Source: Cyanidioschyzon merolae (Eukaryota). From it: a stretch of 64,000 nt of DNA. The notes under the pieces are model-generated. The model was not told the origin of the DNA. It searched no databases and saw only the letters and a list, made by a program, of their open reading frames with translations. The position numbers were made by a program, and so were the translations under genes. Below are positions 2,502 through 55,010 of the stretch, in pieces. The stretch lies in the NCBI GenBank assembly GCA_000091205.1, contig AP006501.2. The stretch is one strand, 5' to 3'. Position 1 is the stretch's first letter, and the number at the start of each line of letters is the position of its first letter.

Positions 2502-3761
2502 TCAAGGTGATTCGGGTTCGGGTTCGGATTCGGGTTCCAGTTGCGCAACGATAACGCTCGCATCGTCACCCTTCCCAGGACAAACAAGTCTCGGCATGCG
2601 TTCCGATATGTAAGGATCGCAATTGGTGCAGCTGGAGAAGTTATGTGCGAGTTGTGCCAGTTGATAGCTTAACAACACTGGATCTATGTGGGTAAAGGTG
2701 CCCAAGCAGGTCCGATTCGCCACCGCCAGATTCGAATCATACGCAGAAGAGACCGGACACACCAGCGCGAGAATCTGGCTCTCACTGATATTATCGAAAA
2801 GGCCATCCGTCCCAAATATAACCGTATCGTACGCTCGTAGTCGGAACACGTCGAGGTAAATGGGCACCACATCACCCGTACACGTCTCGATCGTGATGCT
2901 GGTGCGTTGGGTTTCCGGATTCCCCTCGATGCCGTTGAGGCTCGAGAACACAATTGTTTGATCACGAATCACGAGGAACCCGATATTGCCTGTACGCACG
3001 GCATAGAGCAGATTCCCATTGTTTGCGAGACATGCCGCCAGCACCGACACCGAACGCACTGCTTCGGGCGGCCGCATATGCGTCACGGCATCACGGAGAC
3101 AGCTGAGTAGTTCGAAGCGTGGTTGCCAGTTTCGTCCTCGAGCGGTGTCTTGCTCCGATTCAGAAAAAAGCACCTGTTCAATGAACCCGTCTAAGATGTT
3201 GCGCACATGGTACTGCGCCGTGTACATATGCGCCAGTTCTACATCGCGCGTGTCCTTAATCGGTGCGAATGCCGCGCGAACAACACCACGCTCAGTGGCG
3301 TAGAGAACGTGACCGCAGTCCGCAAGGCCCACCGCGCCCTTCCCCTCGCAAACGAAGACCGTGTCCGTCGACCCCGAGAGAAGCAACGCCTCACCAGGAA
3401 ACGTTGTACCTTGTTCCGCACTAGGACGATCGCCGATGATCTGGTACGTTCCACACCGAAAGACGCACCGCTGCTCTGAGACTGCAAGCGGACGCTGCTC
3501 GTTGTGCGGCTCGCTCCGCAACGACAGTTTCGCCACGCCGCACCGCCGCTGTGCCTCGTGTGAGTGCTGACCGCGCAAACACCTCAGTGCAGACGCCGAC
3601 GAGAAGAGGCTTCCGCGATAAACACACGTGTTAATAACGAACTGCAACGGATTATCAGGTTCAACTGGCTGCCGCAACGAGCTTGGGGTTTCTTTGAACA
3701 GAGTGCCGCCTCGTTGCCTGCCGAGCGACCGCATGGCGAAAACGTACCGCCTGCTTGGCAT
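2502..3761 (-). CDS. PPM/PP2C-like protein phosphatase, divergent
   Basis: 419-aa ORF with an ATG start. PP2C-like blocks: LANNGNLLYAVRTGNIGFLVIRD (cf. VANVGDSRAVL), VIFGTDGLFDNISESQI (cf. LILASDGLWDV), C-terminal GKGDDASVIVAQL (cf. SKDNITVIVV). The N-terminal ~120 aa are not obviously PP2C. Confidence 0.4.
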   Translation of the reverse strand: MPSRRYVFAMRSLGRQRGGTLFKETPSSLRQPVEPDNPLQFVINTCVYRGSLFSSASALRCLRGQHSHEAQRRCGVAKLSLRSEPHNEQRPLAVSEQRCVFRCGTYQIIGDRPSAEQGTTFPGEALLLSGSTDTVFVCEGKGAVGLADCGHVLYATERGVVRAAFAPIKDTRDVELAHMYTAQYHVRNILDGFIEQVLFSESEQDTARGRNWQPRFELLSCLRDAVTHMRPPEAVRSVSVLAACLANNGNLLYAVRTGNIGFLVIRDQTIVFSSLNGIEGNPETQRTSITIETCTGDVVPIYLDVFRLRAYDTVIFGTDGLFDNISESQILALVCPVSSAYDSNLAVANRTCLGTFTHIDPVLLSYQLAQLAHNFSSCTNCDPYISERMPRLVCPGKGDDASVIVAQLEPESEPEPESP

Positions 3762-3872
3762 AGACAGTGACCGGAAAGCTGCACCGAAAACGCCGTTGTG
3801 CTCTTCTCGAGCCTGTGTTCCGAGACCTGCACGCCGCCTCCAACAAACGCCGTTCTAAAGAAAAGGCTGCTG

Positions 3873-6145
3873 TCACCAGTGGTACAGCAGTGGCGCGCCA
3901 CGCGCCCCCCAGACAAAACGTCTCGAGCAGATGCGCAGATGCCCTTCAGATTTCTTGAACCGGCCACCCAATACTGCTTCCAACTTCTTTTCATATAGTT
4001 CAACTTTGAGAGGTTGTCCAAGAAAATTTTCTCTTGACAGCTGTGGAGGTCGTTTCTCCAGCAGCGCACATTTCCTTATATTGATTGCGGCGTTAAAGTC
4101 ACGATTCACAAACTCCATATGTTTCTTGCCATTGGTAGTTGGACTCACTAGTGCAAGCAATCCACGAACTTTCGCCCTCCTTTTCATTTGCTCTTCCGTC
4201 AGCGGTCCGTACTTTTTTACATCCTCAGGGCTTCGCTGATATTTTTCCATCTCGACCGTCTGAAGTGTGCACCCCAGTTCATGGTGTGTATAGGACGTTC
4301 GGAACTCATCTGCAGGTATCGTAGCGAAGCTCCGTGCGCACTTCTTGTACGTTCTTGTTGTTGGAGCTGGCGTAGTTCCTTTTTTGGGTCCTCCATCGCC
4401 CTGCTCCGTATGCTACTACGAGCCTTTGACTTTCATCCTCCTTCAAGGCGCTCAACTGACTGAAAAAGTTGGCGACTGCAAGCCGCTTCCCACAATACAG
4501 GTTCATAAGCAGACGGGCCCATCGAGGCTTTGTATACTCCTCCCACAGCGCATCCCAATGAGCAACGCGAACTTCCATAAACTCCCGAAAAGCGTTAGAG
4601 TCCGCTCCTCGGGTCGTCACCTCGCTCAAAGCCTCCAGGTGCTCTTTCATTCCTGAATTCCATGTAATGATTTTCTTCCTTGCATTCATTACGCCGGATC
4701 CTCGGTAGTATCTCGCTCTCGAGAACCTCAACAGACGCATGTCTTTCTGACGTGAGTTGCCGTCAGTACCATCTTCCGCGCGCTTGGGAGCAGCGATGGT
4801 TACGATATTCGTAACCCCAGGGTCCGCGCCAACGACAAAGTCGTTATCCTGCACTTTCTGTGTGGCACAATCTGCCTCCTTCTCATCTTCATGCTTCGTC
4901 ACGGACACTATCGAAGACGGAACTGGACGATCCGCCTTCAAGCGCCGATAGTGAACACACATGGCTACTCCATCGGTTTCGATCACCCCTGTGAATACCT
5001 TTTGTTTGCTCACTTTCAGACTTGTGAAATCGAAGATATTCTTCCAGTACGTGTCCCGGTTTTCACCGGTACTCTCCTTCCTGCTGACATTAAACTCGGG
5101 GCTGAACTCCTTCATGATGCCGTAAAGGATTCTGGAATCGATAGTCACAAAATGTGACTCGATGTTGGACAACGGAACGACGTTGAAGCGCTTACCCAGA
5201 AGCGCAGCCTTTCGTCTCCCCCACTCTTCATTTTTTCCTCACTCAGCTTCATCTCTGCCTTGCGTTCGAGCTCACGGTCCAGAAACACAAAGTAACGCAG
5301 GACGTGGCGGTAGTATCTTTCGTTATCTTTTTTCAACTCTGATATGTTTGCTGCTCGGTTCGCCAACCCCAGTACCGCACGATGCTCTTGTATAGCCGCT
5401 CGGATGACGGAATCCTCATTCATGCTCCTGAGTGATTTCTTCTCGTCGATGAATTCAATCTCATCTTCATGCTTGCGATCGTTCGTGTTGCCATTGATAA
5501 TCGCCCATATCCCCTGGCGAATGAGACCGGGTAGAGTGCAAAGATGGAGCGTATCATGAAGTTCTTGAGGTTCATTGTTAAATGGTTCTTTAGACTGGTG
5601 AGGTAGTTCATCGCTCCGTAGGTGTAAATATTCGAATCCCCCCCTGTATCGAGTACCGTCGAAGCGGAACTCGGCGTAAATTTTGTGGAGGGCATGAACT
5701 CGCTCATTTCACCTAGACGTTTCACCGGTGCCAAGCATCCGGTGATGAAAAACGGTTTTGTTGAGAAAATCTTCCAGAATATGGACTGTTTTGATGTCCG
5801 TAACGTCATGATACCATTTTCTTAGGAAATCCACCATTCCTTGAGAAGCGTCACGAACACCGCTGGAGTTCGGCTCGACACGGTTCCAGATTGCCTCTCG
5901 AACGTTTTCCCTGTACGGATCCTTGGTATGTTGAAGAAGACAGGCTTTCACCGCCATCTCGTCGTACCGTCATCTTTTGCGTAGCCTTTGACGTAGGGCC
6001 TCCCGCTTTTACTTCTTCTTCTTATCCTGTTCCTTTGCACTTGGCACTGTTCTTCATTTTTTCGGGCTGCCGGCGACATTGGCGCCCAGGATCCTCCACT
6101 TCCCCTCCCGTAACTTTCCTTTTTCAATATAAAAAACCGAAACAA
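3873..6145 (-). pseudogene. Fanzor-type TnpB-like RNA-guided endonuclease gene with at least 4 frameshifts
   Basis: The reading frame switches between consecutive ORF segments. One example lies at 4250-4306: a third frame restores ...FRTSYTHHELGCTLQTVEMEKYQR. Catalytic-looking residues are retained. Confidence 0.65.
3876..6116 (-). mobile_element. Fanzor/TnpB-like element, copy A (~2.24 kb, degraded)
   Basis: Colinear ORF segments on the minus strand (5948-6145, 5709-5957, 5420-5809, 5145-5423, 4306-5172, 3873-4250) jointly encode a ~700-aa protein. It carries [12 protein letters not shown] (RuvC-I-like) and EFVNRDFNAAINIRKCA (the classical TnpB/Fanzor RuvC-III motif). Homology to copy B begins at ~6116 and ends just after the stop codon. 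Confidence 0.7.
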
Positions 6146-7199
6146 CTTTGGATGGTACAGCTATTACGCATAAAAAAGCACTTGAATACATTAGTGTGAA
6201 GGTTGAAACACGATTGAGGACAAACAATGGGCTTTTCTACGACTTGAAATCGTTAAAATTTGTACGATAGAGCTACATGCTTCATTTTTCCGATGGAAAA
6301 ACACTTACATTGACAATGGATCCCAGATTGTGCTATAAATGGGTATCGGATTTGGCGAAAGCATCCATCATGCTGCATTCTAACTCCAGATTCCATTACG
6401 TATACTTCCTTTCAGATGTACTACTCGTCTCGTGCTTCCTGTCATTCGCCGGGTGCATGCGTTGATGCACCCGCCTTAGCGTCTAATCCGCTGATGCCGA
6501 TGCATAACAGAGACAGGACAGCGTTGCCGTACTACTGAGGGCGTCGGATCGAGGAATGCTCCACCTGACACAGAGTCGGAGTATAGGATCATTCTGGGAG
6601 CCAGCAAGCTCCGCAGACAGACACACTGCCTGCGATAGCGTGAAGCTATATACCAGGACTCCACCGCGACCAGATCGACGCCCAGATGCAGTTTAACTGC
6701 CGCTAGTACCAGAATAAACAGTGCTGCAGACGAATTGCTCAGATTTCTATGCAGCACCCGCCACTGGGTGGCGAGCACGAAGCACGTGCCTGGGGTACTC
6801 GTCTGGCTCGCGGGTTTTTCCGTCGAGAAATTCAACTTTCGACAAAACGGGAACCGTGTTTCCTTTTTATCGTTTATCGTGCAGGGAAGATAAATTGGTA
6901 TATCGTTGCTAGTTAATGGTTAGTCTCTGTTCTTTGCTCTGTATGCTGCGGTCGGTTAGCGCGCCGGGGAGATCAGGTCGTACGAGACAAGACGCACGTG
7001 TCGCCGTTGAAAGGAAACGCGAAATTGTGAAAATCCGTTTTCTTATTGTTCTACCGTACAAGTTGTATTTGCGTTAAAGTCGTAACAAAGTAAAGTTGTT
7101 TCATGCAATTGTGTTTCAAACCTCAAGTAAGTGTATACAAATGATGTTTGGCAATTCAGATCAGAAGCGTCGAAAGAACCTTCTTCTTCTTCAAAAATA

Positions 7200-9416
7200 A
7201 AAAAGGTTATGGAAAAGAAACTGGAGGATCCTGGACATCTGGTGTCGTCGACTGCCGGAGACTGACGAAAAACATGGCGGAGCTAAAAGGAACATGAGAA
7301 GACGATGGAGCAAAAGAGGAAGGCCCGAGGTCAGAAGCTGAACGAACCACGACAGTACGACAAGATGGTGGTGAAAACCTGTCTTCTCGCACATATCAAG
7401 GATCCGTCCCGGCGAAGGCTGCGAGAGGCCATCAGAAACCGTATCGAGTCATACTCCATGAGTGTTATGATGGCTTCTGCAGGTATAATGCATTTGGTGA
7501 AGGAGATGCGCGACGACGTAACGGGCATCAAAACAGTCGAGGTTCTGGAAGAATTTTTCGGCAAAACCTTTATTCGTCACCTGATGCTTGGTACAGGGGA
7601 AACGTCGAGGAGAAATGAGCGGGTGCATGCCCTCTGCCAAAAATACTCCTTCTACAGCTCCAACGGTACTCGAGACAGGGGTGACTCGCATATTTACACC
7701 GTCGGGTTATGAAGCACCTCACGAACCTGAAGAACTATTTGACCATGAGCCTGGAACGTTTCATGATACGCGCCGTCTGTACGCGCTACCCGGGCCCCTC
7801 TCGCGAAGGGATATGGACCATCATCGACGGCATCACAAACGATAGTAAGAATGAGCAGGAGATCGAATTTGTTCACGGGAAGACATCACGCAGGAGAGCA
7901 AATGAGGATTCTGGAATCCGTGCAGCTATTAAAGAGCATCGTGTGGTCTTGGGGCTGGCGAGTCCAGCAGAAAAGATATCCGAGTTGAAAAAAGATTCGG
8001 AAAGATACGATCGCCTCATCTTGCGCTATACCATATTCCTGAACCGACAACTGAAATGCAAGACCGATATGGAGCAGGGTGTTGAAGCAAATGCAGTGTC
8101 GGAGAAACGGAAAGCTGCGCTTCTGGAGAAGCGCGTCAACGTCGTTCCGTTGTGCAACATCAAGTCACATTTTGTGAGTATCGACTCCGAAATCCCTTAC
8201 GGCATCATTACGGAGATCTGTCCAGTGTTCGATGTAAGCAACAAGCAGTTCACCGATGAAAACCAGGAGACGTACTGGAAGAAGAATATCTTCGATTCCA
8301 AACGTCTCAGAACGAGCAAGAAAAAGGAATTCACTGGGATGATCGAAAGTGATGCGATAGCCATGCGTGTACATTATCGGCGCTTGAAGGCGGATCGTCC
8401 AGTTCTGTCTTCGTTGCCGTCGCTGGCAAAGCGTGAAGAAAACAAAGAGGCTAGCCCAACGACGCAGGAGGTGCATGAGAACCACTTTGTCGTTGGCGCG
8501 GGCCCTGGGAACACGAATATCAGGACCATCACAACACGCAATTGCGGGGATGATGGCATCGACGACAACCTACGTCAAAAAACACATGCGTGTTTTAAAG
8601 CTTTCAAGAACGAGATATTACCGAGAATTCGGTGTGATGAATGCAAAGAAGAAAAGTGGGGCGTGGAACGCAGGATTGAAAGAGCACCTGGAAGCGATCA
8701 GCCAGGTGACGGGCCGGGGAGCGGACTTTCACGCTTTTCGGGAGTTTATGGAAGTTCGTGTTGCTCATTGCGAGGCGCTGTAGGAGGAGTATACAAAGCC
8801 CCGGTGGGCTCGGTTGCGTATGAATCTACACGGTGGGAGCCAGCGTGCGTTCGCGAGTTTTTTCAATGAATTGAACGTCTTGAAGGAGAGCGACAGTCAG
8901 AGGCTCGTACTAGCGTATGGAGCAGGGCGATGGAAGACCCGAAAAGGGTGTACACGAGCTCCAACTACAAGAACGCACAAGGAGTGTGCAAGGCGTTTCG
9001 TTACGATACCTGTAGATGAGTTACGAACGTCGTATACACACCATGAACTGGGTTGTACGCATCATAGAGTGGAGATGGAAAAGTACCAGTGAAGCCCTGA
9101 GGATGTAAAAAAGTACGGAGCGTTGACGGAGGAACAAATGGAAAGCAGGGCGAAAGCTCGTGGACTACTCGCATTACTGTGTACAAACAAAGATGGCAAG
9201 AAACGTATGGAGTTTGTGAATCGTGACTTTAACGCCGCTATCAATATAAGGAGATGTGCGGTGGTGGAAAGAAGACCTCCAGAGTGGACACGATAGAACT
9301 TTGTTGCGCAATCATTCAAACTGGAACTGTATGAGAAAAAGTTGGAGGCAGTAGTAGGTGGCCTGTCCAAAAAGGCTGGGAGGCGTCTGCACGTCAGCCG
9401 AAGACGATTTATCTAG
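7200..9416 (+). mobile_element. Fanzor/TnpB-like element, copy B (~2.2 kb, degraded), inverted relative to copy A
   Basis: ORF segments 7305-7712, 7709-8869, 8433-8783, 8814-9092 and a 9095-9416 frame are colinear with copy A at ~55-65% aa identity. RuvC-I reads [10 protein letters not shown] (D to G). The C-terminus reads MEFVNRDFNAAINIRRCAVV with in-frame stops (MEKYQ*, ...EWTR*). Confidence 0.7.
7305..9416 (+). pseudogene. Fanzor-type TnpB-like endonuclease gene, inactivated (frameshifts, stops, RuvC-I D to G)
   Basis: As above; the aligned sequence contains stop codons. Confidence 0.65.
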
Positions 9417-10217
9417 CGCGGGTTTCTCGCCACTACTGTACACGGCCGCCGGCGACGTTCGTCTTTTAGGGCGTTCCTTGTGTCGGCGATACCACGGACC
9501 AGCAGCAGGCGACCGCGCCCATCGCCCGAAAGAAGCAACCGGTTTCGCGAGCTGGACGCAGTACGGCGCTCTGCCCTGTGCGCCTTTTGTGGCTTTCAGG
9601 TACGCGGTCTACCGCTCCGGACACTGCTCCAACAGTCTGGCCGGTCCTTGATTACGACAAGTAGCGCTGAAAGCAAGCCTTTCGTGCACGGAAACTGAAC
9701 GCGAGTCGGAGCACTGTTCGTCACACAAGTGCTGGGTTATCCGTTCTCGTCCCTATCATAGACGTGTGTGTGTGGGCGTGCGGGTGGCTCCGCTTTGCTC
9801 CTCGAGATTTTCCCTTCCGTGAAACGGGGACGTGTCTGCAGGATTATGTGACGTACGCGAGTTTGATCGGAAGACAGTTACTGTCAGGAAAGCGCTGGCT
9901 GGAGCTGCCCGCAAGACGACTGGTCGCAGGAGGTGTTTTCGTGGTAAGCGTCACCCTCGCCGGCATCACGCTTTACCACGGGTGGTATTCCAACACACAA
10001 AGCATTCAAGACGATCATGTCCGGAATGGCTCTGTGGAGACGTGCGACTGCGCCCCGCTATGGAGATGCATGCAAGCGTTCGGTAGCGAGCACGCACCAG
10101 AGTGCGCAGCGGAACGAAGCAGCCTCCTGCGCTGCATGGCGCACAGCAAGCCTTCTACATCATAAACATGAAGGGGCACCATTGGCGGCCTTTATGTGAC
10201 TGTGCAAAGAAGTGACA

Positions 10218-10853: not shown

Positions 10854-11431
10854 TGATGGCGGTTCACGCCTCCAACAGGCACCCTTTTGGAGTCGACCTC
10901 AGTGCAGCAGCGTAGCGGTACCTGGGGGGGAGAATTCGCTGCACCCCACACAGGATTCCGTTGCGCGAGCTGTGCACGCACTTTGGCGAGCATTCGCGCT
11001 ACCTCGATGGCCAGCGCGCGCAACCGAAAGCGCAGCAGCGCCTCTGGCACGAATGGCGCCACCAAACTGCCTTCCGCAGCTTGCATGGTGGATGGTGTCG
11101 GATTGTCCAGGTTATGCGCTTATGCTAATGTGCGCGACGCGCATCGGCATCAAGGGTACCTTCTGGGCGCAAGGTCCAGCGAATCGGATACGCATACGGG
11201 GCCAGTGCGCTTTCTGCGCCTACCCACTGTGGTGGGTGTCAAGCACAAACCCGCATTGCCAACCGACAACAGCGCATTCCATGCATGATCACGAAGGAGA
11301 GCGGCGGCTCCCAGCATTCATCCTAACAGCCAAGTTTCTCCAGCGTGTCGTTCAGCAAAGGCAAGCCTGCATCCGCAGACTGTCCGAGCACATACCGACG
11401 ACGAGACCCGATTCTACGTCGGGTGAAGCAC

Positions 11432-11750
11432 GCCTCAAGCCGACGCCCTCTCGGGTATAGAAAAGCTGTTCTAGCTCTATGAACTATCTGCTCTAGCATT
11501 TAAGGTCCAAAGGCGGATACGGAACGGCAGGCACTAGGCACACCCGATGGGACGTATGAAACGGCCGGAATATCCGAGAAGAGGTATCGGTAATGTAACT
11601 TGGAGGTTCGGGGGTTTGATGGACACCTTACCGCCCACTGAAAAAAACCACAAAAAAAGTAAGAAACAAATGCGCTTAATCGGAGAACGCTGGCCGAAGT
11701 AAACGTGTTGTCAGTGAAAAAAATCCGAACGTGCTGCTGTGGTGGCATAT
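11432..11750 (+). repeat. dispersed ~320-bp repeat R1, copy 1
   Basis: Colinear with 18490-18808 at ~80% identity, from agccgacgccct...ctagctctatgaactatctgct through an A-rich tract to gctgctgtggtgg. Followed by an AT-rich 50-bp patch. Confidence 0.7.
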
Positions 11751-15204: not shown

Positions 15205-16019
15205 GGCCCTGCACTGACCCAGCATCCGGACGCAAATAACCAGTGCCGAGAGGTGTACTCGTCGTTGCTGCGACTCCTGAACTTTTCCAGACGATCTAGC
15301 ATATCGCGGATGACACTGAATGCAGGCGAGAAGCTTCCCGTGATCAAGTCTAGAATTCGCAAAACCTTTTCATTGCAAGCAGCAACATGTCATAATGTTG
15401 CACGAGTATAACCATCGGTTTTCGTATTGCAGCGCACGAGGGACGACGACCCGTCCGCCCAGGAGGCTTGCGGGCACGCTGCTGCGATCGCTGGCTCGCT
15501 CCTGGTGCTCAACGCGAGCGCCCCGGATTCTCCATATGTGTGGGATCACGAGCGTACCCAGTCGCTCGTTTCCTGGATGAAACGTGTGTGCACGAAGCCG
15601 CGCTCTCTGTGGTCGAATTCGCTACCTTAACCGTTGGCAGCGAAACCACCAGCTCGATACGTGTACTGAACTCACCGGTGTCGTGATGAAAACGCATTTT
15701 ACGAGTTTTCGAGGGTTTGTGCAAGCTCGCACACCCTCGACAGCAAATGCTCGTTACCGATCATGCTTCGGATCACAACATGGATACGTTCAGCGTGCTT
15801 CTACGCTAGATGCCGCCTTTCTTCATCTGGATCGCCGCTTACACATGCGGGATATTCGGCCAAGGACGCCCGCATCGCGAACCCTGATCGCTCCAACTTG
15901 GTATCATGTATGTTCAATAGAGCGAAAACGTTTCGCAACCATGTAGGTTCAATGAATACCCAGGCGCAGACGCCTCCCAGCCTGTTTTGACCAGCGGCCT
16001 GCTATCGGTTTTGATTTAC

Positions 16020-16215
16020 CCAGGTGCACCTGTAGTCTGGGAGGCTGCCCACAAAGTTGGATCGCGTCAGTTCTGCGGATCTGGCCTTCAGCACCGCACA
16101 TCGTCTGATATTGATGGTGGCGTTGAGGTCTCGGTTCTTGATCTCCTTGCGTGCAGTGCCACTGGTTGAACGCACGATTGCAAGAAGTTTTAGAACTCGT
16201 GCTCGCTGTGCCACT
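16020..16215 (-). mobile_element. solitary internal fragment of a Fanzor/TnpB-like gene (RuvC-III region)
   Basis: The minus-strand ORF encodes ...RARVLKLLAIVRSTSGTARKEIKNRDLNATINIRRCAVLKARSAELTRSNFVGSLP. This matches RAKVRGLLALVSPTTNGKKHMEFVNRDFNAAINIRKCALLEKRPPQLSRENFLGQPL from copy A. It is more diverged than the other copies. Confidence 0.55.
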
Positions 16216-16861
16216 AGAGGCTCGCCTATCCAACACCTCTTCTTCTGCTTCTTCGTCGTCGTCGCTTGTGCTTCTTCTTCGCTCGATCGTCAGCAAGAAG
16301 AGGATTTTTCGGCAGCGGACGATAACGGCCCTTCAGGATCCCCGACTTTCACGCCCATAACTTTCCCTTGCACTCCTTATTTCTTCAAATGAACACACCT
16401 TGAATGCATCAGCGCTAACCAGCGAGACAGCCTTTGATGAAACGCATCTAGGGATTGGAAAACAATTCAGGAGCATGTCAAGGACACGACGATGCGGGAA
16501 TCGCGCAGGCATCGATCGGGCGACGCAGGCGGGTGCACACGCTCCAGTTCACACTGAAACGTAGGAGCAGGCGGTTGAAAGGCCCTCGCGTGGGCAACAA
16601 CGTGCTCTGCGTTGCTTCGGTGGCGTTCATAGCAAGCTGTTCAGGTACGGGGTTTGTGAGGTCTGGCTTGGCCCAGGTGTGAGCAAGCTCTGCTCATAAA
16701 CGTTATCTGTAGTCGGTACGAAGACGATGTTCTTGAACGCAGGCTGTGTGCCACGTCGTAGTGGGCCTGGGTCTCAGGCACGCCCCGTACGAGGTCTCGG
16801 ACGTGAACGCAAGCTGCGCTGGAGCGCCCGGTTCGCGAGGCGACGAGTGGCGTTTCTTGAC

Positions 16862-17122: not shown

Positions 17123-18489
17123 CTTGTCGCTCTGTAGACCAGGACTCAGAAAAGGATCAAGGCCCCTGGGCGTTTAGATATGCGTCTGCCCAGCATCCAA
17201 GAACAGACTTGATCGGTGAGCAACAAATGCTCGGCGATACTGCGGAGATATTCTGTGCTCCTGTCGCTTGGTGCGCACCGCTCTAGGCCGCCTGAGCGTT
17301 GCAGCGTCCAGATTGTCTGGGGCGCGCGTCAGGCACTGCTGGAAGACCCGTACCAATGCCCTGCGAGCTGGTAGGCTGACACCATCCCTGCTACAAGAAT
17401 GATGATATCAAGCATGATGCGTACCCAGCGTTTCTCTCGCTCAGACGCTAGCATGAAATATGGCTGAAACGTAGAACAAGCATGCGAATATCTCCGCGAG
17501 ATTTGCGTAAAGGAAAACGCTATGCGCTCTGACGAACCAGAATGGCACTCGAGCTGAGCATTCCCTGACGCCGTGACGGACGGTGCTCGGTGGACCAGTT
17601 CGGTACGCGATCAATGGGCAGGCAAGTCACCCATCTGGTGGTGATGTCCTTGCGTTGCGGGGTGGTCGCAGCTGCCCAAAGTGCAAAATCCACTCTGACC
17701 TGGTTTGGACTTGCTCGGAAAGGCGCTCCCACAGAGCACATGCTGTTTTGTTCTCGAGTTGCAGCAAACACCGGCGTGCTCCTGTAATTTGAGGGCAAAC
17801 GCTCCGTTGTCAGCAGTTGCCGCGCTAGCGTCACGCGGTTGCGAACGAAGGCTGGTTTCCAGTCAGGCCGATCCCGAGGCTGCCTCGCAAACTTGGTACC
17901 ACGACGAGTACGCACGATCTGAACATTCAGGCGCATTCTGGATTTCGAACCTGTCCAAGTCGGTGGTGCAGAGCAGACTACACGGACGCGCACCCACAAT
18001 GAGGCCGGCTGCCGGGAGCTCAGTCTCTCTGCTTCCGCAAATGCAGCCGCGCTGCCCTCGCCTCCCGGAGCGCCTCGCTGCCCTGTGGAACAGAGCCATG
18101 TACGCACCGGCGACGTTTCTTACGCCAAAACTTTCCGAATTGTTGACGACTATGCACAAAGTGCGCCACTGCACCCGCCACGCGGCGGCGACACGGGCAC
18201 GTCAGCCACAAAGAACCCGTAGCGTGCTTCGCCTGGATGCCTGCCGCCGGTACCTGGATATCAAGGCCTCGTCGATACCGCGCCAAGCGTTAGCGGTGCG
18301 CTTAGCACGCATCGATTCGTTCAATGGATACAGATCCAGATCCGTAATACAGTACCCAGCATGGTACATATCCTAGCGCTGGAGGAGGCGCTCACGTCTC
18401 AAGTTGTCGCGCGCCCGCTCATCATATTCAGGCAAAGCGGCCTGTAACGGCGCTGTGATCGCAAAATGCGCATACAGGAATCGCTACCC

Positions 18490-18808
18490 TCGAGCCGACG
18501 CCCTTTGTGCGGTACAGCAACGCAGCGCTAGCTCTATGAACTATCTGCTCCAGCGGTTCAGGCGCAAAGGCGGATACGGAACAGCAGGCACTAGGCACAC
18601 ACGAGAGGACGTGAGAAACGACCAGAATATCTGAGAAGAAGTATAGGTAATGTAACTCGGAGGTAGGGAATTCGGTGGATACTTCACCGCGCACTGAAAA
18701 AAAAACAGAAAAAGAAAAGAAAGGAAAAAGCGCGTAATCAGAGAACGCTGGCCTAAGTAAACGTTCTGTCAATGAAGAAAAATCGAAATCGCTGCTTGCC
18801 GGTGGGCG
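18490..18808 (+). repeat. dispersed ~320-bp repeat R1, copy 2
   Basis: See copy 1 (11432-11750). Confidence 0.7.
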
Positions 18809-19041
18809 CTCAGGCAGCGCTTCGTGGTACGCGCTGCAATCACAGCGGCGGCGTTACAGGCACGCGGCGCGCATGCAGCGCACGTCACGCTCGGGACAGC
18901 GGTTACGGTTGCGGGAATTTGAACCCGGCGCATGGATCGCGTTGTTGTTGAGCCTGCAGCCGTTGCAGCTGCGGGCGAGCGTGCGTATCGTTGCGCGTTG
19001 TATTTGCTCTCCGGCTCTTTCAAGCAGTCTCAACAGATAAC

Positions 19042-20004: not shown

Positions 20005-22506
20005 ACTCATTGAGAAAGATACGTAAACGGCGCGTGCGCTCCACGCCAGACCGAGGCGTAGCAGCGAATCATCCGTACATGGCCCCCGATGGGACACGCT
20101 ATTTGTGGCAGCGGTCCGCGAGAAGAAAGCGATACCGTCGCGCTCGTACTTGCTGCTTTTATGCGTATATGAGTGGATGACGCAACCCAGGCGATCGAAA
20201 CGTCTACAGCCCGGGCGCGAAAAATGAAGCAGACTGAGGGTAACGGCCGTTTGCGGATCAATCGCAAATGCACCCTGGAGGCGCACCCTGCTGACGTCGT
20301 ACGATCACGTTGCCGGTCCAGAAAAGTGGGAATTCACGCGAGGCATTCCTGATGTGTCGACAGAGGCAAATGACAGGCTGGTGGCGGTGGAGGAGCTCGA
20401 AACGCTTCCGACTTTGGACGGGACATCGTCGCCAGCGCACGAGTCGCGTAGCTGCGTCCGAGTTCATCGTTTGGCGCTCGGCCTCGGGCTGACGGATATC
20501 GTATCGTAAGGCTGGTTTACGCATCATGTCTGTCTTCGTTGCATCTTGCGCTCCTACGTGTTCCTCAACGGACCCGTATAGAGCAAAGCAGACGACGCCC
20601 TGTCCGAATACTAACGCCTCGCCGCCACATGCGTTTCTTCTACGCGTCTCCCATATGTCACATCAAGGGTAATGATGGCATCGTAGACACGTTTGACCTG
20701 CATGGAGTCACCAGGGATCGACGGCCGGCCTCTCCGAGCAAGAAACAAGCATTCGACCGGCGTCGCGAAGCGCATGGACGGTGCTTATCCCAGGTCTCTC
20801 GTTCACAGATACAATGCGGAGCGAATGAAAATCCATATACAGGCATTTCGTGAAATCTCGACCCGAGTCGAGCAACGAGACTCATTCTCAGCCGCTCACC
20901 GTAGATGAAGAGATGGACCTGGAGATGCCGGGCTGAAGAACCTCATTGCCGTCGATGCAACGCTGCGTCAAGGAGACACAGCTAGAGACCTGAACGGAAA
21001 ACAGATGAAACGAGGCAACGTTACCGGGGCTCGTCATAATCCGTAGTCGGGCATGGCAGATGCCGGGACGCATACCAACAAATGGGATGAGGTCGTCGAG
21101 ACCGGTCTCGACACTCTCGACATCGTACTGAATAGTGGCACATGGCTTGTGCGCTTCATGTAGAGAGACTATCAATGTGTAAATCGCTCATGCGGACGAG
21201 GTTTTTGGCAGGACAACACGAGACCGCGCCAGAACACCAGCGATTTCAGTTGTTCAAGGGCGAGAAGCTCGCATTCGCCTACTTGTTCAATGCCTTGGAA
21301 AAGCAAGTAACTGACAAGTCGCGTTGTTAGGTAGTGACCCACGGCGCCGAGCACGCTGTAGCGCGCAAGGGCTGCTTTCGCGCTACCTCGTCCATAGCCT
21401 GCAACGAGCACGGGGATCGATTCGAAACGATTCCCATGGATGCGTCCAGGACGGCATCCATGAATCATGAGCAGGAGCGCACGCTGCAACAAATAGAGAA
21501 GAAGAGCGCCAAACAGAGACGGTTGCAAGAGGTGATGTAGAATACGCGGACCGGACCTCAAATGGCGAGACAATCGTAAGCGAGAGGCTTGCTATGGAAT
21601 GACTCCAGAGCTGGCAAGCATGCGCGCAAACGTGCTTCGCACTCAGCCTTGAACGCGTCAATGAACATCCAAAAACATGTCGTGCTTGCAGAGCGCCCAG
21701 CGGCTCTGTGTCGAGGCAAGTCTCTGACGGAATCGTTCAGTACCCAGTTTGGGCATCGTGCAGAAACGTTGCGATCTGGCGATGAGCGAAAATCACTGGT
21801 CACGAGAGACGGGATTGGATCCTCGCCTGGAGCAAGGCATTGGCATGGTCGGGTTCCGCTCTGTCACGAACCGCTGGAGCACCGTCTTCACACAACGGGA
21901 ACGATTTTGCGGGGTTACCGGTCGACGAAAATTCGTGCCCCATGGTTATCGATAACCGATTCCAGCACACTTGTTCTTCACGCCGTATCAGAAAAGAGGC
22001 GCGTCTCATATGCAATGCTCGTCATATCGACGCATTCCACGACGGGGTCCAGGGCCTGGGCGGGTCCCCGCTGAGCCTCGGCGACGACGACGTCGCGCGC
22101 ACTGTGCGCAACGGCACGAAGGCGGTTGTGCGGCACGCCTCAGAAATACAGCGCGTACGGCACTTTTGCCGTTTCGCATACATATCCACGCATCAGAGAC
22201 GCGGTCCTTACCGAGTACCTGGGCAGACTCGCGTCCTGCACACGACGCCAGCACAGAGTCACGTCGACGGATCGCAGCCGATGAGAGCAGTTGCAGAGGA
22301 TGCCTCCGAGGACCCGTGAGCGATTCCTCCACAGCAGCCGCCACAGCAGCCGCCACCACGGCCACTTCCATGTACGATGGTTCCGCGAACGATACCGGGA
22401 ACTGGCCCCCATCGGGCCGTGTTACGCGTCAAATACAACGCGGAGATTCTCTCGACAGCGTCTACCGACAGCAGAAGAAGCAACGCGCATCCGCGTTTCA
22501 TCGACG

Positions 22507-26993: not shown

Positions 26994-28742
26994 ATGGAAA
27001 AACCCGTAGCCGACGGGCTTGAGGGACTTGAGCTCGAAAAAAAGCAAAGTCATGCACCAGATTCCGTCGCGCTCGGGAAGGAAAAGCCGGCTCGCTCTGC
27101 TGCAGCGCAGGGATCCGTGTCTGCGGAGACAAAAAAACGTGTCGAGCGAGAGACGAAAGAAGGAATAGATTGCCGCAAGGCAGATAACTTTAGTGCATGG
27201 TACCAACAAGTGGTGATCAAAGCGGAGCTCATTGAGCTCTACGATATCTCCGGCTGTTACATCATTCGACCATGGGCGTACGCCGTCTGGGAGAAGATCG
27301 TCGAATTTTTCGACGCTGAAATCAAGAAACTTGGCGTCCAGAATGCGTATTTCCCTGTCTTTGTTTCCGAACGTCGTTTGCGAACAGAGCAGGAACACCT
27401 GGAAGGGTTTGCCGCCGAGGTGGCCTGGGTGACCAAAAGCGGCTCCAGCGAGCTCGAAGAGCCGATCGCCATCCGCCCGACGTCGGAAACGATCATCTAT
27501 CCGGCGATGGCGAAATGGATACGATCGCACCGGGATCTACCCTTGAAGCTGAACCAATGGAGCAATGTCGTGCGTTGGGAATTCAAACACCCGACACCCT
27601 TCATTCGTTCACGAGAATTTCTGTGGCAGGAAGGCCACACCGCCTATGCCGATCGATCAGCAGCTGACGAGGAAGTGCTCCAGATTCTCGAGCTCTACAG
27701 GCGCATCTACGAGGAGCTGCTTGCGGTTCCCGTGATCAAAGGCATCAAAAGTGAGCGGGAGCGGTTCGCTGGCGGCCTGTACACAACCACCGTAGAGGCA
27801 TTTGTGCCCGCAAATGGCCGTGCTGTACAAGGTGCAACGAGTCACTCCCTGGGCCAGAATTTTGCCCGCATGTTTGGAGTGTATTACGAAGGCAAAGACA
27901 GCGGAGAGAAGCTCATGCCTTGGCAAAACTCATGGGGTTGCACAACACGCACCATTGGTGTTGCCGTTATGGTCCACGGAGACGACAGAGGCCTCGTATT
28001 GCCCCCACGCGTGGCACCACTGCAAGTGGTCATCGTGCCCATCATCGTGAAGAACGCCGCAGCAAACGTATCCCAAGTATGCGAGGTTCTCTGCCTGCGA
28101 CTCCAGCGTGCAAACCTGCGGGTGAAATTCGATGATCGCCCCGAGAAGACCCCGGGATGGAAATTCAACGAATGGGAGCTGCGAGGCGTCCCGCTGCGCA
28201 TAGAAGTCGGCCCTCGGGATGTGCAGTCGAAGACGATCACCATTGCACGCCGAGATACCATGGAGAAGCGAAGTATCCAGTTGGTAGATTGGGATGCGCT
28301 TGAAGCAGACGACAGCTTTGGCAGGGAAATTGCGAAAATCCTCGACGATATCCAAAAGAGCATGTTCGAAAGGGCTTCTGCTGAGCGAAACGCGCGCATT
28401 CGCTGTGTCGCAAGCTGGGAGCCGTTCATGAAAGCCATCATCGAACGTTGCCTGGCACTGACACCATGGTGCGCTGAAACCAACTGCGAGGAGCAGGTTC
28501 GTCAGAGAAGCATGCAGGACTCTGTGAGCTATCGTGAGCGCCTGGCCAACGAAGTCGACCCTGCCGCCGCGGACACTGTCCTCTCTGGTGCAGTGAAAAC
28601 GCTTTGCATGCCCTTCGCGTCCGAGCTGGAGCGGCTGCGTCTCGTTGACCGGTCAGAGTACGAGGCGCCAGCGCCTGGCAAACAGTGTTTTGCATGCGAC
28701 GCAGCAGCAAAGCGCTGGGCACTCTGGGGTCGTAGCTACTAG
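26994..28742 (+). CDS. prolyl-tRNA synthetase, eukaryote/archaeal type (class II aaRS)
   Basis: 582 aa with an ATG start. YDISGCYIIRPWAYAVWEKI, WSNVVRWEFKHPTPFIRSREFLWQEGHTAY (motif 2), GGLYTTTVEAF...GATSHSLGQNFA (motif 3), anticodon-binding LQVVIVPI, and a C-terminal ProRS-C domain ending in Tyr. Confidence 0.85.
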   Translation: MEKPVADGLEGLELEKKQSHAPDSVALGKEKPARSAAAQGSVSAETKKRVERETKEGIDCRKADNFSAWYQQVVIKAELIELYDISGCYIIRPWAYAVWEKIVEFFDAEIKKLGVQNAYFPVFVSERRLRTEQEHLEGFAAEVAWVTKSGSSELEEPIAIRPTSETIIYPAMAKWIRSHRDLPLKLNQWSNVVRWEFKHPTPFIRSREFLWQEGHTAYADRSAADEEVLQILELYRRIYEELLAVPVIKGIKSERERFAGGLYTTTVEAFVPANGRAVQGATSHSLGQNFARMFGVYYEGKDSGEKLMPWQNSWGCTTRTIGVAVMVHGDDRGLVLPPRVAPLQVVIVPIIVKNAAANVSQVCEVLCLRLQRANLRVKFDDRPEKTPGWKFNEWELRGVPLRIEVGPRDVQSKTITIARRDTMEKRSIQLVDWDALEADDSFGREIAKILDDIQKSMFERASAERNARIRCVASWEPFMKAIIERCLALTPWCAETNCEEQVRQRSMQDSVSYRERLANEVDPAAADTVLSGAVKTLCMPFASELERLRLVDRSEYEAPAPGKQCFACDAAAKRWALWGRSY

Positions 28743-29598: not shown

Positions 29599-29749
29599 TC
29601 CCTGGTCGTTATCCACGAAGCGTTCGCTCGAATGACGCACCCGGTGAATGCGAAGACAACCCTGAAAACAAACCCCTTTCAAAAGAAAAACGTTGCTGCC
29701 AACGGTGTACGGTAGTGGCGACCAGCGCCTAAGCCTTGACGTCTCCAAC

Positions 29750-30200
29750 TGACGTGTAGACGCCTCGCCGTCTTTCTGGACCGGCCGCCTACAACTGGTT
29801 TCAATTGTTTCTCATATAGTTCCACTTTGAGAGGGTGTCCCACAAAGTTCACTCTTGTCCACTTTGGAGGCTTTTTCTCCATCATCGCACATCTCCCTAC
29901 ATTGATTGCTGCGTGAGAGTCTCGGTTCGCAAATTCCATACGTTTCTTGCCATCACTGGTAGTACTTACTAGTGCAAGCAAACCACGCACTTTCGCTCTC
30001 CTTTCCATTTGATCTTCCGTCAGCGCTCCGTACTTTTTTATATCCTCAGGGCTCCGCTGGCACTTTTCCATCTCCACTCTCTAAAGAGTACACCCCAGTT
30101 CATGGTGTGTATAGGACGTTCGGAAAGCATCTACAGGTATCGTGACGAAACGCCGTGCACACTCCTTGTGCGTTCTTGTCGTTGGAGCTGGTGTACACTC
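29750..30200 (-). mobile_element. 5'-truncated Fanzor/TnpB-like 3' fragment (zinc-finger region + RuvC-III + 3' end)
   Basis: Minus-strand frames give ECTPAPTTRTHKECARRFVTIPVDAFRTSYTHHELGCTL then MEMEKCQRSPEDIKKYGALTEDQMERRAKVRGLLALVSTTSDGKKRMEFANRDSHAAINV...RRLHVSWRR. These are colinear with the copy A/B C-termini. Confidence 0.7.
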
Positions 30201-30552
30201 CAGAGGGTGGAGATGGAGAAATGCCAGCGGAGCCCTGGGGATATAAAAAAGTACGGAGCGCTGACGGAAGGTCAAATGGAAAGGAGGGCGAAATTTCGTG
30301 GATTGCTTGCATTAGTAAGTACAACCAGTGATAGCAAGAAACGTATGGAGTTTGTGAACCGAGAACTTAACGCGGCAATCAAGGTAGGGAGTTGTGCGGT
30401 GATGGAGAAAAGACCTCCAGCGTTGACCAGAGAGGATTGTATGGGGCAACCTCTCAAAGTGGAACTATTTGAGAAAAAAATGAAACCAGTAGTAGCTTGG
30501 CGGCCCAGAGAGGCTGGGAGCCGTCTGCACCTCAGCTGGAGACGATTTGTCC
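30185..30552 (+). mobile_element. 5'-truncated Fanzor/TnpB-like 3' fragment, inverted partner of 29750-30200
   Basis: The plus strand encodes VEMEKCQRSPGDIKKYGALTEGQMERRAKFRGLLALVSTTSDSKKRMEFVNRELNAAIKV...SRLHLSWRRF, ~80% aa identity to its minus-strand partner. The junction lies at ~30184, where homology switches strand. Confidence 0.7.
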
Positions 30553-30642
30553 AAGGCGCGTTCGCCGCCACGACTACACACCGCTGGCGGCAGCGGTTCT
30601 CTTTTGAAAGGCGTTATCGGACTAGCCTCTGATTCATCAAGG

Positions 30643-38801: not shown

Positions 38802-40055
38802 ATGCGTTACCTACCGCTCCCTCTTGTATGCGAAATAGCGTCACGGCGCTGGCGAGTCTGGCGCGCTCATACACGATCCTCTGTAAACTGGATCGCAAAA
38901 CCGCTTTATCTAGGTCTGAGCCTCGTTTTGATTTCTTGTGTATGGTGGCTTTTGTCCCACCAGGTAAACTTGGCGGCCTGCTGGCAGAGATACCGCCACG
39001 CCTCAGCGCCCTACCAGCGCTTGGATGTGAAGCAGGTCGATACGCCCCGCATCGCCATCGTGACAGGGGCGACGTCCGCGTTCCTGAATCGATTCTCGCT
39101 TGCCATCACGAACAAACAATGCTTTGCACGGCTTCATGGGTACGAATTTATCATAGATATTCGAGATTGGTCGGAAGTGCACGGTAAGAGCGACTACTGG
39201 AATCGTTTGTGGTTTTTGATGGAATATGTCCAGGCGTGTCTTGGTGGCAACTCGTGTCCGGACTGGATCTTCTACGTGGATGCCGACGCAATGGTGATGA
39301 ACACCAGCATTCCGCTGAGCGCTTTCACTGACGCAGTATCCGAAGATATCGATCTCGTGCTGCATGATGGTGCCGATTACATCAACTCTGGAGCGTTTTT
39401 CATTCGACCAACGGAATGGTCGTTGGCCTTTTTGGAGAAATGGCGAGCGCAAGCCGATGAGCCGCAAACGCTCGCAGACCAGTCAGCGCTCTGGGAGGTG
39501 CTCCTCGAGCTGGCGGATGCGCATGCGCAAGTGGATGCATCCCTGCAACCATCTCCAGCAGTTGTTGCACGCTACACCGGAGCTTGCAAGCCGCAACAAC
39601 TTCACCGAGGCACACCAGACGAGAACTGCTTCACCTGGGACACCTGTCGATGCAAAAGGTGTCTTCGACGCGCAGAGCGCTGCTGGCGGGAGGAAATGCG
39701 TCGCCTGGGGCATCCGTACGGGCAGCGGCGGCTGCCTAAAGTCCATTTCTGGTCACCAGACGGAGACTGGACTACAAACTGGACGAAGCCATGGCCAAGG
39801 GGTTTCAATTTTTACGCCTCTGTGGGCCACTGGGGCAACGTGGAACGATGTCATCCTGCGCAGTTGTGGCGACTGGGCGATCTGCTGGTCCAAGATGCCA
39901 AAGGTCTTGGCCAGGCCTACGCAACCTGGTGGGATGCTTTCCGCTGCCCGACGACGATGACGACAGAGCAGCTTCTTGTACACCTCGAAGCATCGAGAGG
40001 TCCGACGCACCAGCAGCTCTGGGGTCCTAGCGGGCGCTTCCAGGGCTCGCGCTAA
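38802..40055 (+). CDS. glycosyltransferase, GT34 (GMA12/MNN10-type galactosyl/xylosyltransferase)-like
   Basis: N-terminal TM anchor, then RIAIVTGATSAF...NKQCFARLHGYEFIID...DWIFYVDADAMVMN...DLVLHDGADYINSGAFFIRPTEWSLAFLEKW. This is colinear with the GT34 conserved blocks, including the DxD-like motif. Confidence 0.5.
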   Translation: MRYLPLPLVCEIASRRWRVWRAHTRSSVNWIAKPLYLGLSLVLISCVWWLLSHQVNLAACWQRYRHASAPYQRLDVKQVDTPRIAIVTGATSAFLNRFSLAITNKQCFARLHGYEFIIDIRDWSEVHGKSDYWNRLWFLMEYVQACLGGNSCPDWIFYVDADAMVMNTSIPLSAFTDAVSEDIDLVLHDGADYINSGAFFIRPTEWSLAFLEKWRAQADEPQTLADQSALWEVLLELADAHAQVDASLQPSPAVVARYTGACKPQQLHRGTPDENCFTWDTCRCKRCLRRAERCWREEMRRLGHPYGQRRLPKVHFWSPDGDWTTNWTKPWPRGFNFYASVGHWGNVERCHPAQLWRLGDLLVQDAKGLGQAYATWWDAFRCPTTMTTEQLLVHLEASRGPTHQQLWGPSGRFQGSR

Positions 40056-53114: not shown

Positions 53115-54309
53115 ATGGATTCGGGACCAAGCAGTTAAATGGCACAACTTGCCTAGCGAGGCGTCCAGCGTTTCGTGCCAGAGACGGTGTAGGCGGTGCT
53201 CGTGCTCGTTACCTGCAATCACAGGTTTCGGATCAAGTGCAAGCGGTGGACGCTGGACCAGCGAGGCGTGGCGTTTACGTCATTTCCATGTGCCGACGCT
53301 GCGTGATACGAAAAAAACAACAGCATCGCCAGATGGTGCGCGTTTTTGGCGCGAGATAAGGCTCTTCCCCGGAACGCAAATCCTATTTCTCACAGGGCAT
53401 CTCCGCAGCTGGTGCCGATTCGAAGAGACCTTCATCCGCCAGCAGCCAAGGGTGCCGAATCGCGACTCCAAAACCCCCTGCTGGGTATTAAGTCGTCGGC
53501 GCCTCGCTGGACGCCTCATGTGCGCATCCGTTTCAGACTGCCTCCCGATGCCGAGCACGTGTCAGCGCGCATGCCACACGGAGCTGGCTTGCCTCTATCG
53601 GAACCAAGAAGTCGACTGCGACGGTCGCATACGGTCGAGGTGCATCTGGCAATCTTCTCGTTGGCGCATTGCCCGAGAAGCGGCTGAGAAGCACCGCCAC
53701 GAACGTCAACGAGGTCTTCCACTTGATTCTGGTTCTCGTTGCAGTGCGCGCATGCCACTATGGAGACAAGAGAACCGGCCCTTGCTTCCAGAGGGAATCC
53801 GCATAAGGTTTGCTGCTTTGGTGCAGCGTCATCTCAAACGCTCACGAATACGCTTTCTCAACGGGGTAATCGGGGATGAGGATCCTAGATACCGCCTGAT
53901 CTCCGGGCCGAGGTTCGCATACCTCGAGCGATTCCTGGAGCTGCCGCTCTGCTTGTAGGCACAGTGCGAGGCAAGCTGCTGCCATGATAAACGTAATCCC
54001 GATAGGTAGTGCCGCCGGATATGACCCTAAACGAAGTGTGTGTCTTTGTGGGTGCGCGGAGATTGGGCTACTCGTTTGTTGAAGCGGATGCGTGTCAACC
54101 AGCATGGATGCAGTTCCATCGGTGTGAGCTGGAGTGTGCAAAACACCGCATAGCCATTCCGTATCCATACAGCAGTAGCAGCAGCAGCAGCAGCAGCAAT
54201 CGTCAGTGAAAGAAAAAACTGTTTTTACGAACACGGACGGTAAATGAATATCAATATATGGACGCCTCCTAGCCGTTTTCGACCGGCCCCCTGTTATCGG
54301 TTCCAGTGT

Positions 54310-54480
54310 ATCCGCTGTACACCACGAGCCTGAGAGGTTGTGCGATAAAGTTAGATCACGTCAGCTCTGCGGCTCTCGTCTCCAGCACAGCATACTGCCT
54401 GATACTGGTAACAGCGTTGAATTCTCGGTTCACGAGCTCCTTGGGTTTATTGCCTCTGGTTGAACACATCCGTGCATGGA
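54310..54480 (-). mobile_element. solitary diverged fragment of a Fanzor/TnpB-like gene (RuvC-III region)
   Basis: Minus strand encodes ...RGNKPKELVNREFNAVTSIRQYAVLETRAAELT*SNFIAQPLRLVV, colinear with GKKHMEFVNRDFNAAINIRKCALLEKRPPQLSRENFLGQPLKVEL. The listed plus-strand ORF 54306-54512 is its antisense frame. Confidence 0.5.
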
Positions 54481-55010
54481 TCACTAGATCTCGTACCCTC
54501 TGTGCCACTTAAGTCTAGCCTACTTCCCTCTTCTTCTTCATATCACTCGCTCTTCTTCGCTCGATAGTTGGAGCGAAGCGAATTTTTGTCGTTGTTTTCC
54601 GGCACCCGGCGAGGAAGGCACTCCAGGAGCCCCGACGCTCACGTTCATACCTCTGTATTTTTATTTCGTTACATGAACGCACTTTGAACACACCTGCTCG
54701 ATACCACGAAAAAGCACATTCTTCCACGCACCTGAGGCTCAATCATAATCGGAATGAAAGATGCTATGCAGCGCTCATATCCCGCTTTACGTATGAAACG
54801 TTGCCCGTCGTAACGCGGGCTGTACGATGAGGGCGCTCGACGCGGGGCACACGCGTCAGGCGCGTGCAGCACCATCGTGAACAGTTAGGGTTTGGCTGTT
54901 TTCGCTGACGTACCATACGAGAACGTTTGGGATCAGAGGCTTGACTTGGCCTAGACTTTGGCTTGAGATCCGCACGCGTTGCGGAGCACCATTACAATAG
55001 TTACGTCGTT

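Follow-up and report, generated by a model that had tools for sequence, protein, structure and literature searches.

The question that this locus raises is where a mobile element ends. The 64,000-nucleotide (nt) stretch of Cyanidioschyzon merolae DNA analysed here (contig AP006501.2 of assembly GCA_000091205.1; referred to as the window) contains four homologous copies of an element that encodes a TnpB/Fanzor-type protein, revealed by a BLAST comparison of the window with itself. An initial annotation had correctly recognised the protein type, and had held that homology among the copies breaks off abruptly at a common 3' boundary, the flanks beyond it being unrelated; it defined this right end to within 10-20 bp at the C-terminal peptide RLHxSxRRF, just after the open reading frame (ORF), with a variable guide derived from the flank following it. 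The shared boundary is real, in keeping with a mobile element, and far beyond chance, both in the four window copies and in the 46 junctions described below, but it lies elsewhere, 65-69 nt downstream of the RRF codons. Judged from their sequences, the four are almost certainly old, inactivated or truncated copies of the published element CMe-1A, and the common 3' boundary is its right end. To the whole statement, that these are CMe-1A copies with a shared right end whose conserved tail would act as an omega-RNA scaffold with a guide taken from the flank, we assign a probability of about 0.65. The copies, designated A, B, Fm and Fp, and their tails are:

3846..6281, minus strand: copy A, CMe-1A Fanzor1 (self-BLAST, six-frame reading, homology to the other copies)
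3846..3914, minus strand: non-coding 3' tail of copy A, the 69 nt that separate the RRF codon from the right end (alignment, identity, published consensus)
6285..9475 (end approximate), plus strand: copy B, full-length "long form" of CMe-1A, ~3.19 kb (shared left end, published left-end consensus)
9411..9475, plus strand: non-coding 3' tail of copy B, 65 nt, the final ~8 nt diverged (alignment, identity, published consensus)
29671..30194, minus strand: Fm, a CMe-1A copy truncated on its 5' side at ...GTPAPTT and reduced to the 3' ~520 nt, with one in-frame stop
29671..29735, minus strand: non-coding 3' tail of Fm, 65 nt, with the terminal stem-loop AACGUUUUUC-UUUU-GAAAGGGGUU
30195..30615, plus strand: Fp, a CMe-1A copy truncated on its 5' side at ...GCTLQRVEMEK and reduced to the 3' ~420 nt, head to head with Fm
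30549..30615, plus strand: non-coding 3' tail of Fp, 67 nt

The C-terminal motif is found in B (RLHVSRRRF, ending at 9410), A (HLRICSRRF, ending at 3915) and Fp (RLHLSWRRF, ending at 30548), but not in Fm, to which it had also been attributed and which reads RRLHVSWRRQ instead of RRF. The peptides quoted downstream of it were correct (VWGARGAPLLYHW and a stop in A, I and a stop in B, QGLGAGRHYRT in Fm, VQGAFAATTTH in Fp), but the DNA that specifies them is not unrelated. A gapped alignment of the four junctions runs on through ...CGCCACTACTGTACAC...CTTTTGAAAGGCGTT for 65-69 nt more, and similarity does not cease a few codons past RRF. Over the 66 nt that precede RRF the four copies have a mean pairwise identity of 0.71; between RRF and the end it is still 0.69, but the next 66 nt give 0.48, the value for shuffled sequences being 0.50 +/- 0.03. 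The downstream peptides look unrelated because small indels and a natural stop codon intervene; one such indel lies at 3911/9414, where extension of the A/B repeat without gaps comes to a halt. A conserved non-coding tail of 59-61 nt comes between the stop codon and the right end, and homology well past the stop, which the initial annotation had set beforehand as the refuting observation, was found in four of four copies.

A protein search with the reconstructed protein returned 51 relatives, all from hot-spring-type metagenomes, and a metagenome scan gave 79 loci. After near-identical junctions had been collapsed, 46 non-redundant 3' junctions were available, four from the window and 42 from metagenome contigs. 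We infer that the metagenome loci amount to paralogous copies within one species, the same as that of the window or one very close to it. Contig Ga0080006_1131325 (locus L080, 1-13740; also the source of L025) is collinear with window positions 13731-1, with 98.4% identity over 13.7 kb. The public metagenomes therefore include a very close relative of strain 10D, and as the collinear stretch takes in A, B and the A/B junction, these insertions predate the split. No empty site and no polymorphic insertion was found among the 79 loci; the orthologous locus of the 98.4%-identical strain contains the same A and B copies.

The multiple alignment of 3' junctions which the initial annotation had suggested gave a conserved terminus, ...GAAAGGCG(T/G)T, at the element end. 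The majority-base fraction over the 46 junctions is ~0.78 (~0.8-0.99) up to this terminus and ~0.32 thereafter. A few G/T-rich bases (TGTTG, GTTGGTG, GGTGGTG) trail it and blur the final 5-10 nt of the right end; beyond them the copies are unrelated. The junctions together with the published consensus place the right end at ...CTTTTGAAAGGCG(TT), the terminal bases also being written ...GAAAGGCGTT. In window coordinates this corresponds to 3846-3848 in A, ~9475 in B, 29671-29673 in Fm and 30613-30615 in Fp.

CMe-1A was described by Bao and Jurka (2013, Mobile DNA 4:12, PMC3627910) as a 3169-bp element present in C. merolae in ~150 copies with ~80% identity to the consensus. It has no terminal inverted repeats (TIRs), its target-site duplication (TSD) was not determinable, and it encodes a single-exon Fanzor1 protein of 734 amino acids (aa); its 5' 635 bp are common to the short element TE-N2_CMe (PMC3627910). 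The DNA consensus starts CGATGACAAAACGTTTACATTGACC... and ends ...CTTTTGAAAGGCG, the terminus also being given as ...GTCTAGGGCGCGTTTGCCGCCACTACTGTACACCGCTGGCGGCAGCGTTTTTCTTTTGAAAGGCG / ...GGAGACGTTTTGTCTAGGGCGCGTTTGCCGCCACTACTGTACACCGCTGGCGGCAGCGTTTTTCTTTTGAAAGGCG, and the consensus protein of the supplement ends ...NRDFNAAINIRRCAVLEKRPPELTRENFVGQPLKVELYEKKLEAVVGGRSKKTGRRLHVSWRRFV / ...GQPLKVELYEKKLEAVVGGRSKKTGRRLHVSWRRFV, i.e. ...RRLHVSWRRFV (PMC3627910). The published end lies 59 nt past the TAG stop and 65 nt past the RRF codons, and agrees within 2 nt with that obtained from the 46 junctions. The last 76 nt of the consensus are 88% identical to Fp, 81% to Fm, 80% to B and 78% to A, with the right-end consensus mapping to A 3924-3848, Fm 29746-29675 and Fp 30538-30613, while B matches the published left end at 6291-6433 with 80% identity. 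The reconstructed frames of A and B and the 46-copy consensus likewise reproduce the published CMe-1 C-terminus. CMe-1A, its protein and its 3' terminus are already known, having been published and deposited in 2013.

The left end of B (6283-6287) is common to nine independent copies. When the left end was aligned with the reverse complement of the right end as a search for TIRs, the scores were not above those of shuffles, and a search for TSDs found sharing between left and right flanks not above that of mismatched pairs. All four window copies are dead and the protein can no longer be made from them. A and B are pseudogenes because several frameshifts and in-frame stops break the reading frame: on six-frame reading at least four frame changes are needed in A, which also has an in-frame stop, and B shows several frameshifts and in-frame stops. 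An intact ORF is absent from these two and from the fragments Fm and Fp; longer frames exist elsewhere, e.g. the 752-aa gene call P0037.

Copy A and the consensus contain the Fanzor1/TnpB motifs VVGADPG(V/N)TN, (A/V)DEFRTS and NRDFNAAINI, which correspond, respectively, to the RuvC-I Asp, the [TS][TS] and the C-terminal RD of the signature D...[TS][TS]...RD given by Bao and Jurka. A profile of 11 family members had a sole and weak match in the PDB, to the Spizellomyces punctatus Fanzor1 SpuFz1 (8GKH; E = 3.6e-4, ~300 positions), and the alignment spans the RuvC-I Asp to DE(F/Y)(R/K)TS. Pfam searches with the ORF pieces and longer relatives revealed no family above threshold. The only precomputed Pfam label on proteins P0037-P0085 (L080 8620-9429) is PF26935 (DUF8286). 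Routine domain annotation would miss the CMe-1 family as Fanzor.

What, then, is the tail? The consensus ORF ends ...GRRLHVSWRRFV, with TAG or TAA directly after RRFV. This codon is a stop in at least 37 of the 46 copies (TAG 28, TAA 9) and, because it switches between two stop codons, it is a genuine terminator. The 59-61 nt that follow consist of GGCG[S]GTTT[S']YCGCC, then ACTACTGTACAC, a variable short palindrome, and a terminal stem-loop ending at the conserved terminus. Majority fractions at codon positions 1, 2 and 3 of the RuvC-III region are 0.92, 0.95 and 0.79, a strong periodicity which is absent over VLEKRPPELTRENF, moderate over GQPLKVELYEKKLEAVVGGR, weak up to RRF and absent past the stop. 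A conserved non-coding region does connect the end of the ORF with the right end (0.78 vs 0.32 past the end), and its 16-nt block GCCACTACTGTACAC has majority fractions of 0.83-0.98, making it as conserved as codon positions 1-2.

Three hairpins are found in this region. AGAC-N5-GUCU overlaps the RRF codons and shows two single compensatory changes. In the second, HP1 (GGCG[S]-GUUU-[S']YCGCC), one pair alternates between G-C (17 copies) and C-G (15 copies). The terminal stem-loop, which ends 0-2 nt before the last conserved base, occurs in two versions, AACGUUUUUC-UUUU-GAAAGGCGUU or GCGUCGUUCGA-CUU-UCGAACGGCGU; since both contain G.U pairs, it can form on the sense strand alone. Across the 46 copies the last 34 nt fold at -9.85 kcal/mol vs -6.66 for shuffles (Wilcoxon p = 1e-9), with 18/46 at z < -1.64. 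A long-range helix of GCAGTAGTAG (codons EAVVG) with ACTACTGT of the tail, common in single-sequence folds, was rejected: its pairs barely vary and there is no convincing compensation.

Further upstream, the codons for LEKRPPE form a nearly invariant hairpin, CTGGAG-N7-CTCCAG (B 9263-9281, A 4044-4062, Fp 30401-30419; alignment columns 128-146). Its proline codons never change synonymously while a loop codon varies (AAA/ACG/AAG/AAC/AAT), and periodicity is lost over ~45 nt; this suggests a constraint at the nucleotide level inside the ORF. Codon x of RPPExTR (columns 149-151; B 9284-9286) is hypervariable, being TAG in 8/46 copies and TGA in one more, the Gln codon of NF.GQPL (columns 173-175) is TAA or TAG in 3/46, and P0037 ends with ...ENFIG, before the RLHxSxRRF tail is reached. 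Because of these stops the conserved tail peptide is untranslated in some otherwise long frames.

In characterised Fanzor and TnpB systems the omega-RNA (fRNA) comes from a conserved, structured non-coding region extending from the ORF end to the right end, and in the Fanzors the sequence that directly follows this end acts as the guide (PMC10432273, PMC10530073). With SpuFz1, ApmFNuc and TnpB as the model, the final ~200 nt of CMe-1A, i.e. the C-terminal coding part plus the tail, would be transcribed into an omega-RNA scaffold. The 3' end of this RNA would read past the right end into flanking DNA, and the flanking portion would serve as a guide for the Fanzor RuvC nuclease. Since the anatomy of CMe-1A matches that of the characterised Fanzors, the guide proposed in the initial annotation appears reasonable once moved 65 nt downstream. 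For the omega-RNA and flank-guide part by itself, which is argued from analogy, we consider the chances to be even.

A number of observations weigh against the proposal. The tail as a whole, with a mean majority fraction of 0.78, is no more conserved than third codon positions. The fold z-scores of the four window tails (-0.9 to +0.9) are not significant; the covariation score (0.095 vs 0.081 for shuffles) is weak overall; one pair only, in HP1, covaries strongly and perhaps reflects a single subfamily split; and most of the proposed helices are uninformative on pairing because they are invariant. A search of Rfam at a permissive E-value gave no family match, with one chance-level hit only, and RNAalifold returned a near-empty consensus for the 46 tails because indels misalign the two versions of the terminal hairpin. 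In the protein, the C4 zinc finger TNB (OrfB_Zn_ribbon) is degenerate with its cysteines largely missing, only HHELGC...C being left, and PF07282 scores below gathering level (E = 0.23 for P0037, 0.028 for P0086). SpuFz1 is associated with inverted repeats and putative TA duplications, and CMe-1A has neither. Lastly, as support for a transposon-adjacent motif (TAM), YGAT(T/C) stands in register 5' of the left end in only 5/9 independent flanks, a small sample.

One may ask instead whether the tail and stem-loop are mainly a cis-acting transposition end, the sense-strand hairpin being presented as DNA to a transposase supplied in trans, as with the IS200/IS605 subterminal and Helitron 3' hairpins, in which case its role would be another than that of a guide-RNA scaffold, or one in addition to it. 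The lack of TIRs and TSDs, as in HUH-type single-strand elements, and the position of the hairpin 0-2 nt from the last conserved base are in keeping with this, and the recurrent YGAT 5' of the left end recalls TTGAT, the target of ISDra2. Fanzor1 proteins have, moreover, been captured by Helitron-type elements (Bao and Jurka, PMC3627910). The element, however, contains no transposase ORF and one ORF family only, although no search aimed at HUH enzymes was made, and its left end lacks a matching hairpin; besides, the idea is compatible with an omega-RNA, one end playing both roles in IS200/IS605. We regard it as rather unlikely, though to be taken seriously. An ordinary 3' untranslated region (UTR) of the Fanzor mRNA, carrying 3'-end formation or stability signals and stopping at the element end since the element must bring its own, is a less probable account. 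The tail does start exactly at a selected stop (TAG 28, TAA 9), is short (~60 nt) and has a mean conservation at the level of synonymous sites, but a 3' UTR does not lead one to expect a 16-nt block conserved like non-synonymous positions, the structure-preserving switch in HP1, two alternative terminal hairpins, or the LEKRPPE hairpin without codon periodicity, which suggests that nucleotide constraint reaches into the ORF.

Retroposition in trans, with a non-long-terminal-repeat (non-LTR) reverse transcriptase recognising the 3' stem-loop and G/T-rich tail, would account for 5'-truncated copies with intact 3' ends such as Fm and Fp, and the bases after GGCG are G/T-rich and partly repeat-like, e.g. 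(GGTGGC)n in locus L064. The copies are without flanking TSDs, however, many of the "5' truncations" belong to a distinct short form whose 5' end is itself conserved, and there is neither poly(A) nor a regular microsatellite tail, so that we find it very improbable. Least credible of all is a right end no more than 10-20 bp from RRF with everything beyond being flank or guide: the differing peptides past RRF and the halt of the ungapped extension had spoken for it, and it is refuted by the gapped alignment and 46 junctions, with homology for 65-69 nt more, and by a published consensus reaching 59 nt past the stop.

The omega-RNA proposal can be taken further, into a version which we hold only tentatively and think less probable than not being so: that the last ~225 nt of CMe-1A are a functional scaffold overlapping the C-terminal codons in a still-active, TIR-less Fanzor1 element. 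The scaffold would extend from the CTGGAG-N7-CTCCAG hairpin (LEKRPPE), through the ACTACTGTACAC block, to the terminal stem-loop. The RLHxSxRRF peptide would be partly shaped by RNA constraint, AGACGUUUUGUCU, including the RRF codons, being itself a hairpin, and the guide would be taken from whatever follows ...GAAAGGCGUU. The ~550-bp repeats at 15940-16464 and 54223-54716 would then resemble the "ghost" guide loci described by Saito et al.

These repeats constitute a separate family (window 15940-16464 and 54223-54716, both minus strand; L026 6323-6833; L079 7490-8028). They keep only a diverged Fanzor C-terminal region (...NRDLNATINIRRCAVLK...AGRRLRLGIH and a stop) with 5' and 3' flanking sequence of their own, and may be non-autonomous, "ghost"-like derivatives. 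That they conserve the CMe-1A tail was rejected, as their 3' end differs. More distant relics lie at 16047-16244, 54317-54463 and 20333-21795 (plus strand), the last being a heavily degenerate relic of a distant Fanzor-like gene with ~26-30% protein identity to CMe-1.

Copies of CMe-1A differ at their 5' ends. The first ~660-700 nt of the long form are a TE-N2_CMe-like module; B consists of this module (6285 to ~6950-6990) followed by the Fanzor unit. Many copies are of a short form which starts ~660-770 nt in, at about ATCGCGCTCGGTGAGCGCACC; the sequence upstream of it is of at least three different kinds. Copy A is of this form: it lacks the 5' module of ~660-700 nt and a further ~100 nt of the Fanzor unit, and it directly abuts the left end of B. 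Solo TE-N2_CMe-like modules are present at window positions 11157-11724 and 18488-18811, both on the minus strand; at other loci the module borders the Fanzor unit on its 5' side and may face either way, and a third 5' module, of unrelated sequence, is seen as well. The left-end flanks that bear on YGAT are window 6275-6284, L047 2061-2070, L029 1507-1516, L062 1951-1960, L044 915-924 and L070 2136-2145, that of L070/L072 being the reverse complement of the short-form 5' end of another copy (ATCGACGC...). To judge from these flanks YGAT may be a target or TAM motif, or part of the element.

Both pairs of copies in the window are arranged head to head, as are copies in metagenome loci L007 and L021. 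A and B are 76% identical across ~2.24 kb, and the truncated 5' end of A abuts the left end of B at 6281/6285. A simple nested insertion of B into A was rejected because the sequence past the right end of B does not contain the 5' part that A lacks. The Fm/Fp junction (30190-30198) contains 7-8 nt of inverted microhomology (GGTGTACAC). That Fm and Fp are two arms of one fold-back event is not supported, because their mutual identity of 76% does not exceed their identity with other copies, which reaches 80%; by this comparison they are not sister copies. As for the surroundings, ORFs at 2502-3761 (minus strand; CMS015C), 26994-28742 (prolyl-tRNA synthetase) and 38802-40055 are exact matches to annotated proteins of C. 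merolae 10D, so that the window is nuclear DNA of this red alga. It has a GC content of ~57% and genes without introns and, as we read the CMS locus tags, comes from near the left end of chromosome 19.

The value of these results as discovery is small, the element having been published in 2013 and the RNA-guided mechanism of Fanzors shown in 2023. The shift of the boundary by ~65 bp has practical weight: a guide designed from the bases just past RRF would have been putative scaffold. More generally, reading at the peptide level misplaces transposon ends where a stop and indels intervene. C. merolae is a 42-45 °C acidophile, and the stop, 16-nt block, covarying hairpin and two-version, sense-strand stem-loop offer a testable candidate omega-RNA anatomy for a Fanzor1 from a thermo-acidophilic alga.

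Among known systems the closest is the published CMe-1A, which is of the same genome and family; both its ends map on window copies and nothing essential is different. Unlike its consensus, A and B have decayed and Fm and Fp are truncated, and the 2013 paper, which predates RNA guidance, is silent on omega-RNA, tail hairpins and target motif. With SpuFz1 and the other Fanzor OMEGA systems (Saito et al. 2023, PMC10432273; Jiang et al. 2023, PMC10530073) CMe-1A shares a Fanzor-type protein and a conserved, apparently structured non-coding 3' region. Compared with them its tail is short, ~60 nt past the stop, and the zinc-finger cysteines are largely lost. TnpB-only elements of the IS200/IS605 type (IS1341-like) and ISDra2 resemble it in having a single TnpB-like ORF and neither TIRs nor TSDs. 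We know of no TnpA partner for CMe-1A. It differs from these elements in residing in a eukaryotic nucleus, in its protein, which at 734 aa is ~1.5 times longer, and in a left end without a matching hairpin, whereas a hairpin beside the right end is common to both, and in the IS200/IS605-type elements it is the ORF 3' end together with the right end that gives rise to the omega-RNA.

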